Below the pieces are notes generated by a model. It made no database searches and had not been told where the DNA came from. It worked only from the letters and a program-made list of their open reading frames with translations. The position numbers were made by a program, and so were the translations under genes. This document shows positions 7,827-63,955 of a stretch of DNA of 64,000 nucleotides, in pieces. How positions within the stretch are numbered: the first letter of the stretch is position 1; every line of letters begins with the position of its first letter. Source of the DNA: an uncultured Alphaproteobacteria bacterium (lineage in GTDB: Bacteria; Pseudomonadota; Alphaproteobacteria; Caulobacterales; Aquidulcibacteraceae); NCBI GenBank assembly GCA_902826245.1, contig CADEEA010000007.1, positions 4,285 to 68,284 on the forward strand, given 5' to 3'.

Positions 7827-10064
7827 CTACCCCTTAACCCGCTCCACATCCTTCACCGCTTTACTCGTCCGCAACGCAGCTAAGATGTTCGTCAGGTGCC
7901 TCGCATCGGCGACTTCGATGTCGAAGATCATGTCGAAGAAATCCACCGTGCGTTTGGCCAAGCGCAGATTGAGAATATCGCCCTCGTTCTCGGCAATCAT
8001 ACCGCAGAGTTCGGCAAGTACGCCGCGCTTGTTCTCGACCACGACGACGATACGTCCGACCGCGAGCGTCCGGTTCAGCGCCGTCGGCGTCCAGGCGAGA
8101 TCGATCCACTCGCCCTCGCCTTCCAGGGCGCCTAATTGCTCGCAGTCGATAGTATGGATCACCACGCCTTGCCCTGGCGTTTGCACGCCGATAATACGGT
8201 CGCCCGGTATCGGCGTACAACATTCGGCGAAGTGCAGCCCGACTCCCGCGGTGAGATTGCTGCCCTTGACGTAAAGCTTCGCCTTCTCCCGCTCCATGGG
8301 GCGACGGCCTTCATCCTTGCGGACCTTTTCCTCCAACCCAGGAAACGCCGCGACCACCACGGCGCTCGCTTTGAGCGCGCCGTCGCCGACAGCGATGAAT
8401 AATTCCTCTTCCTCCTGCTTGCCCAACCGCGCGGCAGCCGTCTTCAACGCGGTGTCGGCAAGTTCGTGGCCATAACGATGCAGCGCGTGCGCCACCAATT
8501 CGCGGCCGATGCGCGCGAAATCCTCGCGCTGGGCCTGGCGCTGCAGACGCCGCTGCGCTGAGCGCGCGCGCCCGGTCTTGGTCAGCGCTTCGTAGCCAGG
8601 GAGCGGCGCCACCTTGTCGCCGGTGATGATGTCGATCACGTCGCCATTGCGTAGCGCCGTGCGCAATGGGCGCTCGACCCCGTTGATCTTGGCGCCGGTG
8701 CAGCGATCGCCGATATCGGAGTGCACGGCGTAGGCGAAGTCGAGCGGCGTGGCGCCGTGCGGCAGCGGGATCAGCGCGCCCTTGGGCGTAAACGCAAACA
8801 CATGATCCTGATACATTTCGAGCTTGGCGTGCTCCATGAATTCTTCAGGATCGGCGCCGTGTTCGGCGATTTCGAGCAGCGAGCGCGTCACTTCGCGCGC
8901 GTCAAGGCCGGCGGAGGCCGCCAACTCCTCGTCATAGCCATAGGCTTCGTTCTTGTAGCGCCAGTGCGCGGCGACGCCGACTTCTGCGATCTGCTCCATA
9001 GCGTCGGTGCGGATCTGGATTTCCACGCGCACATTACCGGGACCGATCACGGTGGTGTGGATAGACCGATAACCGTTCGGCTTCGGATTGGAGATGTGGT
9101 CCTCCAACTGATCCGGCACGCACCGCCATGTCTGGTGGATGAGCCCAAGTGCGCGATAGCAATCGTCCGGCGTGTTGACGACGACCCGGAAGGCGTACAC
9201 GTCCGCGAGATCGGAAAACTCCACGCTCTTGCGCTGCAATTTGCGCCAGATTGAGTATGGCTGCTTTTCACGCCCATAGACGCGCGCATCGACGCCGGCG
9301 AATTCGAACACCTCCATGATCGTCTGCACGATGATGGCGACGTTGGCGCCCTTCTCGATGCGTAATTGCTCGAGCCGCGCATTGATGGCGGATTCGGCGT
9401 CCGGGAAGGCCTCGTGGAAAGCGAGACTCTCCAGTTCACGCGCCATCCGCTCCATGCCAATGCGGCGCGCCAGCGGCCCGTATATCTCCAGCGTCTCCAA
9501 AGCGATGCGCCGGCGTTTCCCGGGCTCCGGCAGGTGCGAGAGCGTGCGCATATTGTGCAGGCGGTCGGCAAGCTTCACCAGCAGCACACGAACGTCGCGC
9601 GACATGGCGAGAATGAATTTCTGCAGGTTCTGCGCTTGCTTGTTTTCTTCCGACAGCACTTCGAGTTTGGATAATTTGGTGACGCCTTCGACCAAGTCGG
9701 TCACTTCGTCGCCGAACTTTTCGCGGAGCTCCTCAGGCGTGGCGTCGGTGTCCTCGAGGGTGTCGTGCAGTAGGCCCGCGATAATGGTGGTGGTGTCGAG
9801 TTTGTACTCAGTGAGCAGCCCCGCCACCTCGATGGGATGCGCGAAATACGGGTCGCCGGAATGGCGCACCTGGCTGCCATGCTTCAGCGTGGTGAACACG
9901 TAGGCGCGATTGATCAGCTGGTCGTCGATCGAGGGGTCGTAGGCGCGCATGCGATCGACCAGTTCGAACTGGCGTAGATAGGGCGCACGCGTGAGCGCGT
10001 CACCCGCGCCAGCCTGATTTTGACCGGCAGGGCCTTTGCCAAGGACGACGTCGCCGTCGTCCAT
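7827..10064 (-). CDS. spoT: Bifunctional (p)ppGpp synthetase/hydrolase
   Basis: HD domain (LLHDTLED), synthetase (GYRSIHT), TGS and ACT domains. Confidence 0.97.
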   Translation of the reverse strand: MDDGDVVLGKGPAGQNQAGAGDALTRAPYLRQFELVDRMRAYDPSIDDQLINRAYVFTTLKHGSQVRHSGDPYFAHPIEVAGLLTEYKLDTTTIIAGLLHDTLEDTDATPEELREKFGDEVTDLVEGVTKLSKLEVLSEENKQAQNLQKFILAMSRDVRVLLVKLADRLHNMRTLSHLPEPGKRRRIALETLEIYGPLARRIGMERMARELESLAFHEAFPDAESAINARLEQLRIEKGANVAIIVQTIMEVFEFAGVDARVYGREKQPYSIWRKLQRKSVEFSDLADVYAFRVVVNTPDDCYRALGLIHQTWRCVPDQLEDHISNPKPNGYRSIHTTVIGPGNVRVEIQIRTDAMEQIAEVGVAAHWRYKNEAYGYDEELAASAGLDAREVTRSLLEIAEHGADPEEFMEHAKLEMYQDHVFAFTPKGALIPLPHGATPLDFAYAVHSDIGDRCTGAKINGVERPLRTALRNGDVIDIITGDKVAPLPGYEALTKTGRARSAQRRLQRQAQREDFARIGRELVAHALHRYGHELADTALKTAAARLGKQEEEELFIAVGDGALKASAVVVAAFPGLEEKVRKDEGRRPMEREKAKLYVKGSNLTAGVGLHFAECCTPIPGDRIIGVQTPGQGVVIHTIDCEQLGALEGEGEWIDLAWTPTALNRTLAVGRIVVVVENKRGVLAELCGMIAENEGDILNLRLAKRTVDFFDMIFDIEVADARHLTNILAALRTSKAVKDVERVKG

Positions 10065-59473: not shown

Positions 59474-60829
59474 CTACCGCTCAGCGCGCAACGCGCCTTC
59501 CAATGCTTGAGCAATAGCGAGGAGTTCGCGATCATGCCCCCCTAACGCCGCCACCATCAGCCCCACCGGCGCCTCTCCACCCCTATGGACCGGCAACGAG
59601 ATGGAACACCCATCGATCATATTGATGACACTCGGATTGCGCAGCGCCAAGAGATTGATGCGCCCATAATCGTCATCGCCGGCAACATCTGTGAGGCGAG
59701 GTGGGGTAATGGGCGTGGTTGGCGCCAGCATCGCGTCATAACCGGCCAAAGCGTCCGTGACATCAGCGATAAGTTGCCGACGCTGAGATAGCAATTCAAT
59801 ATAGTCAACGGCGCTTTGGCTCGCCCCTCGTTTGATCCGCACGGCAACACGTGGATCGTAATCAGGCTCGTGCTCGGCCAACATATGGCGATGCCAGGCA
59901 TAACTCTCCGCTGAAGCGAAGCCGCCTTTGCTGTTGATGGCGGCGAGGCGCTCAATCGGCGCGAGCACAATGCTCTCCACTTTAGCGCCAGCCGCCTCAA
60001 GCAAGCCCACCGCACGCTCGTGAGCATCGGCAACCTCAGGCACAACGCCATCGTGAAACACGTTGAGCACTGACGCGAGGCGCAGACCACGCAGATCCTT
60101 GCGCGCGATGTCTGGATCGGCCTCGCCAGCAAGGATAGCATCTAAGGTTGCGACGCAGTCTACGCTGCGAGCGATCGGACCAACAGAATCAAGCGTAGTT
60201 GAAAGTGGCACGGCCCCCTCGCGCGGGACGCGCTTGGAGGTCGGCTTGAAGCCTACCAGACCGCACCACGCCGCCGGAATCCGGCATGAACCGCCCGTAT
60301 CGGTGCCGAGGGAGCCATGCGCCATCTCGTCAGCGACAGCCGCCGCGCCGCCCGATGTCGAACCGCCGGCCAAATGTCGTTCATCCCGGCGCCAAGGGCT
60401 GAGCGGCGTGCCGTAATGAGGATTCAAGCCCAACCCGGAGAACGCGAACTCGGTCATGTTGCTGCGGCCGATCAGGACAAACCCGGCCTTGCGCAAACGT
60501 GCAACCGCCGGCGCGTCGTGCAGAACCGGGCCGTTGTCGAGCACGCGTGAGCCAGCGCGCGTGACTTGGCCAGCAATATCGAACAGGTCCTTGATCGCAA
60601 TGGGGATGCCGGCAAACGGTGACGGCGCCCGATTTTCGGCACGCAATGCATCGGTCGCGTCAGCTGCGGCGCGCGCACCATCCTTGTCCACCGAGACAAA
60701 GGCGACACCGCCCTGCCCGCCGGGATCATCGATCTTCCCAAGGCACGCTTCCAGCAAGGCGCGCGCGCTGGTCTTGCCTGATGCAAGGTCGGCCGCCAGA
60801 GCAGCTAAAGTTGGGGTCTTCGAAGTCAC
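59474..60829 (-). CDS. Amidase-signature family enzyme
   Basis: IAIKDLFD, GGSTSGGA and GTDTGGSCRIPA; GTG start overlapping the cupin stop. Confidence 0.93.
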   Translation of the reverse strand: MTSKTPTLAALAADLASGKTSARALLEACLGKIDDPGGQGGVAFVSVDKDGARAAADATDALRAENRAPSPFAGIPIAIKDLFDIAGQVTRAGSRVLDNGPVLHDAPAVARLRKAGFVLIGRSNMTEFAFSGLGLNPHYGTPLSPWRRDERHLAGGSTSGGAAAVADEMAHGSLGTDTGGSCRIPAAWCGLVGFKPTSKRVPREGAVPLSTTLDSVGPIARSVDCVATLDAILAGEADPDIARKDLRGLRLASVLNVFHDGVVPEVADAHERAVGLLEAAGAKVESIVLAPIERLAAINSKGGFASAESYAWHRHMLAEHEPDYDPRVAVRIKRGASQSAVDYIELLSQRRQLIADVTDALAGYDAMLAPTTPITPPRLTDVAGDDDYGRINLLALRNPSVINMIDGCSISLPVHRGGEAPVGLMVAALGGHDRELLAIAQALEGALRAER

Positions 60830-61245
60830 GCCGGGTCGTAGTAATGAATTTCAAGCAACAGCGCGCCGCCAACGGACTTGAACGGCCCATGATAAACACC
60901 GGGCGGACGCACTGCATAAGTTGCGCCCTTGAAGTTCTCGCCGCCTTCGCCGTTGGCGTCATTGCCGACAGTGAGGTCGCCTGAGATCAAGAACACCTCT
61001 TCCCAATATTCATGCACGAACGGTTTCGTCGTCATGAATCCAGGCTCCATGCGCAGGAGGCGCGTGCGGCTGCCGCGCCTGTTCACCTCATCGAGGCTGC
61101 CTGACAAAACTTTCTCCGCCGCGAGCGCATCCGGCGCGTAACCGTCGGGCAGCCGCCAGCCGGATGGAAAGCCATTGCGCACGGTCCACCCTGGCGCTCC
61201 CAGATCAATGGAGCGAAACTCGTCGTGGATTTTGTTCACGGCCAT
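60826..61245 (-). CDS. Cupin-domain protein
   Basis: HEYWEEVFLISGDL and RPPGVYHGPF motifs. Confidence 0.85.
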   Translation of the reverse strand: MAVNKIHDEFRSIDLGAPGWTVRNGFPSGWRLPDGYAPDALAAEKVLSGSLDEVNRRGSRTRLLRMEPGFMTTKPFVHEYWEEVFLISGDLTVGNDANGEGGENFKGATYAVRPPGVYHGPFKSVGGALLLEIHYYDPA

Positions 61246-61256
61246 GGCGGCCTCCT

Positions 61257-62186
61257 TCAGGTCCAAAGATCGCGGTACCGTTCGGCGACGATGTCGCCGT
61301 AGCCGGGGTCGCCGGCGAGTATGCCAACGTCCCGCGAAAACGCCTTCATGCCTTCGACAAAGTCGATACCAATACGCAAATCATAGTATGGCACATCGCG
61401 GCGAATAAGTTCGCTGATCAATCCCGCTTCGCGCGGAGGGAAACGCTTATTTCCCACTTGCTTGGCTAAGGACGGATCATTTCGCAGGGCCACGTGCGCG
61501 CGGCGAATGGCGCGCACCGCGGCAGCAGCGGTCTCCGGTTCGCGCGCAATCAACTCATCGGTCGCGGCGATGGCGGCCATTGTGTAATTGAACGCAGCAC
61601 TCGGCCCGTCGCCGCGACGTACATCGAGCACCACAGCGCCGGCCCCTTCGCTAACAGCCACTTCCGCGCCCATGCCGTTCGCCCAGAAGCCGTCAATTTT
61701 GCCCTCGGCCAACGCGCGAGCTGCGGTCACGCCGAAATTGACGACTTGCCCGGGCTCTGGCTTGGCGCCGGGCACGGGTGCGATCTGCACGCCGTCGCGC
61801 TCGACATCGATGCCGCTCTCCAACAACAGGCGCCGCAACCCCATCTCCACCCACGGCGCCGCGCCTATGCGTTTGCCTTTGACGATCGAAAGATCGCCGC
61901 GCTTGGGCCCGAGATCGGCGCGCATCACCAAGAACCAGTACATGCCCTGGCCCTGCGCGCAGAGCAGCTTTACCCCGCGCCACTCGGGAAATGCCGACAC
62001 CGCCGAATGAGCAGAGCCAGCCACGAAATCGACCGCGCCGTCGCGCATGGCGCGATAGGCGGCATCGACCGGGAAAATCAGTTCAAGCGAAACATCAAGC
62101 CCTTCCTCGGCAAAACAACCGAGATCGACGGCAGCGACGGCCGGAAAATATGAATTCGAGATCAGGTCTGGAACCGCGATCTTCAC
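61257..62186 (-). CDS. NMT1/THI5-like binding-protein-fold protein lacking a signal peptide
   Basis: G.F.EEGLDV.L, DLSIVKGKRIG and type II PBP pattern. GTG start 8 nt after the DUF2848 stop. Confidence 0.8.
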   Translation of the reverse strand: MKIAVPDLISNSYFPAVAAVDLGCFAEEGLDVSLELIFPVDAAYRAMRDGAVDFVAGSAHSAVSAFPEWRGVKLLCAQGQGMYWFLVMRADLGPKRGDLSIVKGKRIGAAPWVEMGLRRLLLESGIDVERDGVQIAPVPGAKPEPGQVVNFGVTAARALAEGKIDGFWANGMGAEVAVSEGAGAVVLDVRRGDGPSAAFNYTMAAIAATDELIAREPETAAAAVRAIRRAHVALRNDPSLAKQVGNKRFPPREAGLISELIRRDVPYYDLRIGIDFVEGMKAFSRDVGILAGDPGYGDIVAERYRDLWT

Positions 62187-62194
62187 AAACTCAC

Positions 62195-62872
62195 CTATCC
62201 GAGAATTGGCAGCTCAACCACGTCATAGCCATGCTTAATGGCGCGGCCGAGCACCGGGTCGGCAAGTTCGAAGGAAAAGCGTGGCGAGGGGCGAATGCCG
62301 CCGATCGCCGCCAGCGTACCGCAGAACATCAGCGTTCCGTCCTGCAGCCCCCCCGTCCGGAAGCGCTCCATCAGATCTTCTGGCGCGCGCATCGCCGTTA
62401 CCGGCCCGTCCTGATAAAGCGCGTCGCCGGCGGCCCAAGAGCGCAAACGAAGCTGGTCCCAGTGCGCGCTCACTTCTTCCCAAGGCCACAACTCACCCGC
62501 GACCGGCTTTTCGCACATCTGTTTCGAGACGGTGACATTGTAGGTCTCAACTTTGCGGTCTGTGTGGTCGGAGCCGACGCCGACAAATAGGCGCCCTTGA
62601 TGGCGCACAAGCACGAACTCCACTTCGCCGCTGGATTCACCGCCTGCGGCTTCGATGGCGCCTGCCGTGGTGAGCCTGCTTGCGGCGACGCGATAGAAGA
62701 TCGGAGTCGATTTCGGCCGCGCCACGCCGAGTTCTTCCAACTCGCGAATGTGCTTTTCCAAAGCCGCCTGGTCGCGCCCCGTCCAACCGGCGATGACCGC
62801 GTCGTTAATCGCGATAGTTTCCGGCCGTGGACCGCTGCGCTCCTGGATTGTGAAGCTCAAACTCACGCTCAT
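62195..62872 (-). CDS. DUF2848-family protein (FAH-like)
   Basis: IAGWTGRD...HIRELEELGV, SSGEVE and GSDHTDR motifs. Confidence 0.9.
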   Translation of the reverse strand: MSVSLSFTIQERSGPRPETIAINDAVIAGWTGRDQAALEKHIRELEELGVARPKSTPIFYRVAASRLTTAGAIEAAGGESSGEVEFVLVRHQGRLFVGVGSDHTDRKVETYNVTVSKQMCEKPVAGELWPWEEVSAHWDQLRLRSWAAGDALYQDGPVTAMRAPEDLMERFRTGGLQDGTLMFCGTLAAIGGIRPSPRFSFELADPVLGRAIKHGYDVVELPILG

Positions 62873-62882
62873 CGCGACCCTC

Positions 62883-63701
62883 TCATGCGGCGGCGTCGAG
62901 GCGCATGACGCCCATGCCAGTCGCCCAACCGTGCACTGCCTCGTAGGCAAGCACTTCGCCCTTGAAGTTACCCAACGCTCCAGCCAGCGCGATCCAAGTA
63001 AGCAACTCTATCGTGCCTGCCCCGGCCTTGCCGAGCTGAGCAACAGAATATGATTTTAGAACCGCGCCGTCGCCGCGGACCATTTGATCCAGAAAACGGC
63101 GATCGAACTCGCTATCGATGTGGCCATGACCGCGCTCGCCTGGATCGTGCGACATGCCGCCGGTGGCGATAAGGCCTATGCGCTTGCCAGAGGCGCGCGC
63201 GACATCGCCAATGATCTGGCCAAACGCGTGGCAACGCGCTGGCGAGGGCTGCGGCGGCGCCAACGTGTTGAAAAACACCGGCACAACAGGAATTCGAAAA
63301 TCCGGCGTCAAGAATGAAAGCGGCACCATGGTGCCGTGATCAAGCAGCAACTCATGAGAAAATGACGGCTCAATGCCGGCGCCGTAGGCGGTGTCGATGA
63401 TTGTTTGCGCCAGAGCGGGATCACCCGGGATCGCCGTCTTCTCCATCTTCATCCACGGTTCGATTGGCCCGTGCGCGGCCTCCCCGCGCCCAACACAAAA
63501 CGCGCTCACATGGTCAAAGAAGAAATTGGCCCAATGCTCGCAAGTCAGCAGCACCAGCACGTCCGGACGCGCAGTTTCGAGCGCCCCCTTTAGCTGATTG
63601 ACGCCAACAGCCAGCGCGTCACGCTGACCAGGCGTGGCCCGCTCACTCCACGCGACCCAGCCCGGCGCGTGCCCAAGGGCTGCTGCGAACGCGATACTCA
63701 T
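62883..63701 (-). CDS. Class III extradiol ring-cleavage dioxygenase, catalytic (LigB/CarBb-like) subunit
   Basis: GHAP, RPDVLVLLTCEH, LDHG, GGMSH and E..W residues at the LigB metal and catalytic positions. Confidence 0.9.
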   Translation of the reverse strand: MSIAFAAALGHAPGWVAWSERATPGQRDALAVGVNQLKGALETARPDVLVLLTCEHWANFFFDHVSAFCVGRGEAAHGPIEPWMKMEKTAIPGDPALAQTIIDTAYGAGIEPSFSHELLLDHGTMVPLSFLTPDFRIPVVPVFFNTLAPPQPSPARCHAFGQIIGDVARASGKRIGLIATGGMSHDPGERGHGHIDSEFDRRFLDQMVRGDGAVLKSYSVAQLGKAGAGTIELLTWIALAGALGNFKGEVLAYEAVHGWATGMGVMRLDAAA

Positions 63702-63955
63702 GGCCCCTCCTGACGGATCGCGGTGAGATAATCCGGCTCGGCAACACCGTGGATGATCGAGAACGGCCGCAGCAACAAGCCATGTACGCCCATGCGGTAA
63801 AGGGCCCCGTAGTCGCGCGCGGCGAGCGCCTTGCCCTCGGTGTCCTCCAGCTTCCACTCAGCGCACAGCGCATCGGGCGTCGCCACGAAGCGCTCGCGTA
63901 CGGCGGCGTTACGATTGATCTCCCGGATCAACTTTTGCAGCTGGTAGACGCTCAT
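63698..63955 (-). CDS. Class III extradiol dioxygenase small (LigA/CarBa-like) subunit
   Basis: 85 aa, Y...KLI..., E..AL...D..ALY..GVH.LL pattern; ATGA overlap with the large subunit. Confidence 0.85.
   Translation of the reverse strand: MSVYQLQKLIREINRNAAVRERFVATPDALCAEWKLEDTEGKALAARDYGALYRMGVHGLLLRPFSIIHGVAEPDYLTAIRQEGP

Follow-up and report, generated by a model that had tools for sequence, protein, structure and literature searches.

In a 64,000-nucleotide stretch of DNA from an uncultured alphaproteobacterium of the family Aquidulcibacteraceae (assembly GCA_902826245.1, contig CADEEA010000007.1, positions 4,285 to 68,284), which we refer to as the window, we analysed a gene on the minus strand (61257..62186) that encodes a 309-residue protein with the fold of a solute-binding protein (SBP). 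From sequence and genome evidence we find firm support for this binding-fold protein having the NMT1/SsuA fold, being cytoplasmic and taking no part in transport. We find firm support as well for its belonging to a distinct and horizontally mobile family, which is tied to the catabolism of aromatic and N-heteroaromatic compounds and is mis-annotated as a subunit of ATP-binding cassette (ABC) transporters.

Fold, start site and transporter context

The NMT1/SsuA-type class II solute-binding fold of the protein is genuine, and the protein has no close characterised relative. It matches the Pfam family NMT1/THI5 (PF09084) with 40.4 bits, against a cut-off of 20.5 bits (E 3.9e-10), and no second Pfam domain was found fused to the longer representatives of its family (P0159, P0233, P0173 and others). 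The AlphaFold model, which is based on 28 homologues, has a mean predicted local distance difference test score (pLDDT) of 95. A Foldseek search of this model against the Protein Data Bank (PDB) returned solely the NMT1-type cluster, namely 3qsl, Thi5, ThiY, SsuA, TauA, PqqT, CmpA, the regulatory domain of CmpC and DszB, with template-modelling (TM) scores of 0.6-0.76 and sequence identities of 12-20%.

Among solved sequences and structures, the nearest is 3QSL from Bordetella bronchiseptica (CAE31940, 'putative exported protein'; profile E 2.7e-16, TM 0.76), together with SsuA, TauA and ThiY. All four of these proteins carry N-terminal export sequences, whereas the binding-fold family does not, and the match to 3qsl begins at residue 47 of that protein but at residue 14 of our query. 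SsuA, TauA and ThiY serve ABC importers; 3qsl has no known ligand. Foldseek and the profile search both also matched the C-terminal regulatory domain of CmpC/NrtC (PDB 9uak, 9uai, 8w9m), a cytoplasmic copy of the NrtA/CmpA fold that takes no part in transport but senses a solute. That domain, however, forms one polypeptide with an ABC ATPase and controls a transporter, whereas the binding-fold protein is free-standing and has no transporter.

The original prediction, which had been made from the sequence of the window, held that the protein lacks a signal peptide and is cytoplasmic, and our analysis bears this out. In the AlphaFold model the fold begins at residue 2, with a first strand formed by residues 2-5 and a first helix by residues 14-21, and we find no leader sequence in the window protein or in approximately 100 aligned homologues. 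The open reading frame (ORF) starts GTG-MKIAVPDLISNSYFP and has an Asp at position 7. Every full-length relative, down to 37% identity, starts at the same point with M-[KR]-[ILV]-A-[IV]-P-D, a family start that can be written as MKLAVPDLISNSYFP.

To these alignments we added a survey of 81 loci, consisting of the window and the best 80 (at least 65% identity; L001-L080) of at least 553 stretches in species-representative genomes that encode a relative. At the codon aligned to residue 1, 69 of the 81 loci have ATG and nine have GTG or TTG. In 54 loci an in-frame stop is found less than 18 codons before the start, and where the upstream frame of the remaining loci is open, it encodes an Arg-rich stretch, not a hydrophobic one. 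N-terminal hydrophobicity, taken as the maximum Kyte-Doolittle value in a window of 12 residues, has a family median of 1.7, versus 2.1-2.9 in six leader-bearing SBPs of neighbouring ABC operons. We also considered the 'LGC' at residues 22-24 as a lipobox and rejected it, given an Asp at -3 and a Cys that is variable in the family.

A lack of ABC partners, likewise part of the original prediction, is upheld at the level of the contig and of the assembly. No ABC ATPase is encoded on the entire 77.7-kb contig, and neither a NitT/TauT-type permease nor a leader-bearing SBP was found at E<=1e-3 in the 93.6%-complete assembly, where the binding-fold gene is the sole match to PF09084. The best ATPase match elsewhere in the assembly lies in an operon that resembles a polyamine-type ABC system, with its ORFs judged by eye.

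It could be argued that the protein is nonetheless a genuine SBP of an ABC importer, with an unusual export route or a mis-called start and a NitT/TauT-type transporter encoded elsewhere. In public sources the homologues do go under the names NitT/TauT or ABC substrate-binding protein, genes for an ABC ATPase or permease are present in 13 of the 81 loci, and in Pseudolabrys and on one metagenome contig a complete NitT/TauT system is encoded close to the gene. Yet the periplasmic binding proteins that we could identify in the 13 loci are separate proteins with leaders of their own, and none has significant BLAST similarity to the binding-fold family; on the same ground we rejected the idea that the binding-fold protein is a recent duplicate of a neighbouring leader-bearing SBP with which it shares a ligand. 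Set beside a family devoid of leaders, the frequent upstream stops, a genome that has no NitT/TauT permease and no other NMT1 protein, and a score of 17.3 bits against a cut-off of 163.5 for the curated SsuA family (SsuA_fam, NCBIfam TIGR01728), these observations leave the importer reading very improbable and close to refuted. The two sequence features named beforehand as contrary to a cytoplasmic role, an upstream signal peptide in homologues and cognate ABC genes, were looked for and neither was seen.

Conservation, spread and neighbourhood of the family

A protein search returned at least 8,000 relatives. Among the best 120 of these, identity to the window protein is nowhere below 70% and lengths are 300-339 residues; many of them bear the name 'NitT/TauT' or 'ABC transporter substrate-binding protein', which is the mis-annotation that had been foreseen. 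Family members are typically 306-315 residues long, and full-length relatives approximately 300-318. When the relatives were clustered at 50%, only 191 representatives scored below 1e-30, from which it follows that this is one compact family.

The best 80 stretches are all 65-73% identical to the window protein, a range of identity that spans several bacterial orders and classes; their hosts are Xanthobacteraceae, Bradyrhizobium, Pseudolabrys, Stellaceae, Micropepsaceae, Beijerinckiaceae, Reyranella, Sphingomonas, Burkholderiales and Binatia. The binding-fold gene is the most conserved of its module, since the corresponding identities are 49-62% for a small cupin, 49-65% for a DUF2848 protein and 27-56% for an amidase. 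Across 78 aligned sequences, 74 of the 309 positions of the binding-fold protein are invariant. These include D7, S10, S12, Y13, F14, G57, S58, H60, W84 and W112 in the first part of the protein and D165, F167, W168, N170, D188, R190, R191, D193 and T202 further on, and the listed positions are identical in all classes of genomic context. In a tree of the same 78 sequences, whose branches are short, the contexts are partly clustered: one clade is associated with PadR and another with GntR/HpaB.

We did not find the gene in any of the 24 same-genus and 16 same-order genomes searched, and its absence from these 40 relatives indicates that an acquired accessory island makes up at least this part of the window. 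A collection of plasmids contained one relative only, on plasmid pTT6-1 of Skermanella sp. TT6 (L087, 9704-12906), where the gene overlaps by 4 nt the end of the gene for the large subunit of a molybdenum (Mo) hydroxylase of the xanthine dehydrogenase family. The operon on this plasmid also encodes a Rieske protein, CoxM/CoxS-like subunits, an alpha/beta hydrolase and an amidohydrolase. At two other loci (L036 and L044, at approximately 8000-9900), two tandem leaderless binding-fold copies stand beside a leader-bearing NMT1-type SBP.

Genes in the 81 loci were called with a heuristic filter on GC content by codon position, and clusters of neighbours within approximately 8 kb of the binding-fold gene were named through representative sequences and Pfam. 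At least one catabolic enzyme family is present in 73 loci. The most frequent neighbours are amidase-signature (AS) amidases (34 of 81 loci), the small cupin (30), which is also the commonest immediate neighbour, and DUF2848 (21), followed by UbiD and a flavin adenine dinucleotide (FAD) monooxygenase (19 each), TctC (18), an HpaB-type hydroxylase (16) and a CoxL-type Mo-hydroxylase (12). There are also overlaps of 1-4 nt between the start of the binding-fold gene and the stop of the gene before it, which encodes an amidase in five loci, an FAD monooxygenase in three and a short-chain dehydrogenase/reductase in one.

It had also been proposed that the protein works in a ring-cleavage pathway. 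The association with a LigB gene turned out to be local: such a gene adjoins the binding-fold gene in only two of the 81 loci, the window and L023. The partners that recur are AS amidase, cupin, DUF2848, flavin hydroxylases, UbiD and Mo-hydroxylases. The FAD monooxygenase and HpaB never occur together in the 81 loci, while each is found with UbiD, which suggests that they are alternative enzymes in one type of pathway and that one hydroxylation step has undergone non-orthologous replacement. A Pfam census of 42 adjacent singleton genes revealed no hidden dominant partner. In seven loci (L004, L010, L031, L040, L046, L055, L065) EgtB-like genes lie convergent to the binding-fold gene, a few genes downstream, and in two there is an EgtD-like gene (Methyltransf_33); these ergothioneine-type genes are probably unrelated to it.

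The five-gene unit in the window

In the window the binding-fold gene is the third of a tightly packed set of five genes on the minus strand, in the order LigB-DUF2848-SBP-cupin-amidase, so that the description of a protein embedded among enzymes proved accurate and extends to translational packing. The LigB and DUF2848 genes are separated by 10 nt, the DUF2848 and binding-fold genes by 8 nt and the binding-fold and cupin genes by 11 nt, and the cupin and amidase genes overlap in GTGA. We read the junction upstream of the binding-fold gene directly from the sequence. It is TAGGTGAGTTTGTG, or TAG-GTGAGTTT-GTG (62187..62197, minus strand), in which the stop codon of DUF2848 (62195-62197) is overlapped by the Shine-Dalgarno sequence AGGTGA and followed by the 8-nt spacer (62187-62194) and by the GTG start at 62186. 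The GTG start 8 nt past the DUF2848 stop, with its own Shine-Dalgarno sequence, is as originally described. Downstream, an AGGAGG Shine-Dalgarno sequence immediately follows the binding-fold stop and serves the ATG of the cupin gene.

The first gene encodes a class III extradiol dioxygenase of the LigB family (62883..63701, minus strand; Pfam LigB, E 1.3e-36), whose matches in NCBIfam are all under their cut-offs. Its longest ORF reaches 63857 (62883-63857) and has an Arg-rich N-terminal extension of 52 codons; the true start is likely to be MSIAF at 63701. Upstream of this start there are approximately 560 nt before a gene of the ornithine cyclodeaminase family (~64266-65240, past the end of the window), and this gap leaves room for an operon promoter.

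The second gene (62195..62872, minus strand; ATG at 62872) encodes a DUF2848 protein of 225 residues (Pfam PF11010, E 3.5e-81). We found no sequence relative of it in the PDB. Its model has a pLDDT of 91 and aligns in Foldseek, at TM ~0.65, with FAHD1, fumarylpyruvate hydrolase, HpcE and 4-oxalocrotonate decarboxylase, so that the protein is predicted to adopt the fold of the fumarylacetoacetate hydrolase (FAH) superfamily. Residues E83, E85, D102, H103 and K117, among others, are invariant in the alignment, and E83-x-E85...D102 is what we take to be the metal triad of the FAH superfamily. The probable role of DUF2848 is that of a metal-dependent enzyme (hydrolase, decarboxylase or isomerase) that acts on products of ring cleavage.

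Downstream of the binding-fold gene lies the gene for the small cupin (60826..61245, minus strand), 139 residues long in the window and approximately 126-140 in the family. The protein scores under all Pfam cut-offs, the closest match being a weak one to Cupin_7 (21 bits versus 27). Its alignment has invariant H78, E82/E83, H119 and H134, a 2-His/Glu set that could form a metal site. The last gene (59474..60829, minus strand) encodes an AS enzyme of 451 residues (Pfam Amidase, E 4e-82), whose start overlaps the stop of the cupin gene and whose nearest relatives in the PDB are 2dc0 and AtzE. The amidase is 34% identical to CnbZ, the aminomuconate deaminase of pCNB1, and the LigB protein 22% identical to CnbCb. 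We considered an aminophenol-type pathway on this basis and did not adopt it, as the amidase is no closer to CnbZ than to other AS amidases and the resemblance is suggestive only. Taken in order, the unit reads as a putative sequence of ring cleavage, processing of the cleavage product and C-N hydrolysis of a nitrogen-containing aromatic compound.

Catalysis, sensing or escort

The same fold has given rise to cytoplasmic enzymes, and the original prediction drew an analogy with two of them, the hydroxymethylpyrimidine phosphate (HMP-P) synthase Thi5/NMT1 (PDB 4h67, 4esx) and the 2'-hydroxybiphenyl-2-sulfinate desulfinase DszB (PDB 2de2, 2de3). At the level of the fold the analogy stands. Foldseek aligns the binding-fold protein with Thi5 (E ~1e-12, TM 0.73) and DszB (E ~3e-10, TM 0.65), the matching Pfam family is named NMT1/THI5, and the context of DszB, too, is an aromatic catabolic pathway. 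The residues that define the two enzymes are, however, absent. In the profile alignment to 4h65/4h67, the GLKAMIH of Thi5 is aligned to AGSAHSA, so that Lys62, the pyridoxal phosphate (PLP) site, is replaced by Gly57 and the catalytic His66 by Ser61. The loop after the first strand, in which the Cys27 of DszB is located, reads PDLxSxSYFP in the family, and nowhere in the family is a Cys invariant or nearly so. Identity to the two enzymes is only 12-17% (approximately 17% to Thi5 and 12-13% to DszB), the family forms a clade separate from Thi5, and neither thiamine nor sulfur-metabolism genes recur nearby. An outright identity with either enzyme is extremely unlikely.

With importers and the two known enzymes set aside in this way, we weigh catalysis of a different kind against binding. 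The reading that we favour, with slightly less than even confidence, is that the protein is a catalytic component of the pathway. It would be a non-redox enzyme of the lyase, decarboxylase, isomerase or hydrolase type, would use the invariant Asp/His/Arg set and would take its place after the hydroxylase or ring-cleavage steps and before those of the FAH-fold protein, the cupin and the amidase, being co-translated in the window with the enzymes of the five-gene unit. We infer from the fold that the invariant residues lie at strand ends, at helix N-termini and on the two crossover strands, the places at which ligand is bound in class II binding proteins. Because these positions are identical in every context, a single common ligand or reaction is implied whatever the neighbour (amidase, hydroxylase, decarboxylase or PadR), and one common small molecule may thus be handled in all clusters. 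The combination of Asp, Trp/Tyr/Phe and an Arg-Arg pair suggests a polar aromatic ligand that has an acidic group and contains nitrogen, as an amine or in the ring, possibly a shared intermediate. Catalysis is favoured over other roles because of the mid-operon position of the gene, its translational coupling to enzymes and its conservation above that of its neighbours.

The serious competitor, to which we assign a probability clearly short of even, is a non-catalytic cytoplasmic binder, either the sensor of a small regulator in the style of NasS-NasT or AmiC-AmiR or an escort or sink for a reactive or scarce intermediate. Several of the observations that support such a binder also weigh against an enzyme. 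The fold overwhelmingly serves binding, and leaderless regulatory versions of it exist, namely NasS (PMC3795266) and the regulatory domain of CmpC/NrtC (PDB 9uak). The typical nucleophile of the known SBP-fold enzymes is lacking, there being no conserved Cys or Lys and no Thi5 Lys/His pair, and invariant residues across differing enzyme contexts fit a single signal molecule as well. In 11 of 78 loci the binding-fold gene directly follows a PadR or GntR regulator. It is directly downstream of PadR in six members of a 13-locus clade (10 of them labelled as PadR context), and a second clade of six has it after GntR. Further points weigh against an enzyme in other ways. The set of neighbours varies, so that the gene has no obligatory single enzyme partner; H60 is replaced by Tyr or Phe in three of 28 more distant members; the placement of the conserved residues in the cleft is deduced from fold topology; and our search of the literature (on DUF2848, on leaderless or cytoplasmic SBPs in catabolic clusters, on THI5-like proteins in degradation clusters and on dihydroxyphthalate decarboxylase as an SBP-fold enzyme) returned neither a paper nor biochemical data on any member of the family.

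Against a sensor, on the other hand, speaks the arrangement of the genes. In the window and at most loci the binding-fold gene stands in the middle of an operon and is coupled translationally to enzymes, not to a regulator; the gaps of 96-142 nt after PadR indicate that this pair is uncoupled, and GntR proteins of this type have an effector domain of their own. The regulators seen are GntR, MarR and PadR, and among the recurrent neighbours of the 81 loci, with singletons partly annotated, we found no ANTAR or response-regulator cluster, so that no fixed regulatory partner recurs. A conservation above that of the flanking enzymes would also be unusual in a sensor. NasS, the cytoplasmic NrtA-like nitrate/nitrite sensor of the NasS-NasT system of Paracoccus denitrificans (PMC3795266), resembles the binding-fold family in being leaderless, soluble and cytoplasmic, in its NMT1/NrtA-type fold and in being prone to mis-annotation as a transporter. 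It differs in that it always occurs with the ANTAR antiterminator NasT and keeps the nitrate-binding residues of NrtA, whereas the binding-fold family has no recurring regulatory partner, has conserved positions rich in Asp, Trp and Arg, and is found in the context of catabolic enzymes.

We hold it possible, at somewhat below an even chance, that the family has a cytoplasmic role in N-heteroaromatic and aromatic catabolism that has so far gone unrecognised, and that it represents either a new class of enzyme on the solute-binding fold, with an Asp/Arg/His site but neither a Cys nor a Lys nucleophile, or an escort for metabolites. In the latter case the protein would hand one shared, possibly reactive, intermediate between the hydroxylases, the decarboxylases and the FAH/cupin/amidase module.

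The known roles of leaderless binding-fold proteins are those of enzymes (Thi5, DszB) and of sensors (NasS), and the large and unusually conserved family described here has the defining features of none of them. That its conserved positions are the same across contexts points to a shared step or intermediate in the breakdown of nitrogen-containing aromatic compounds by soil bacteria, one that is missing from pathway maps. If the protein is indeed a catabolic component, the label of ABC transporter subunit would be wrong for thousands of genes in public databases. The identity of its ligand would mend this widespread mis-annotation and would help to assign the DUF2848 (FAH-fold) and small cupin proteins that travel with it.

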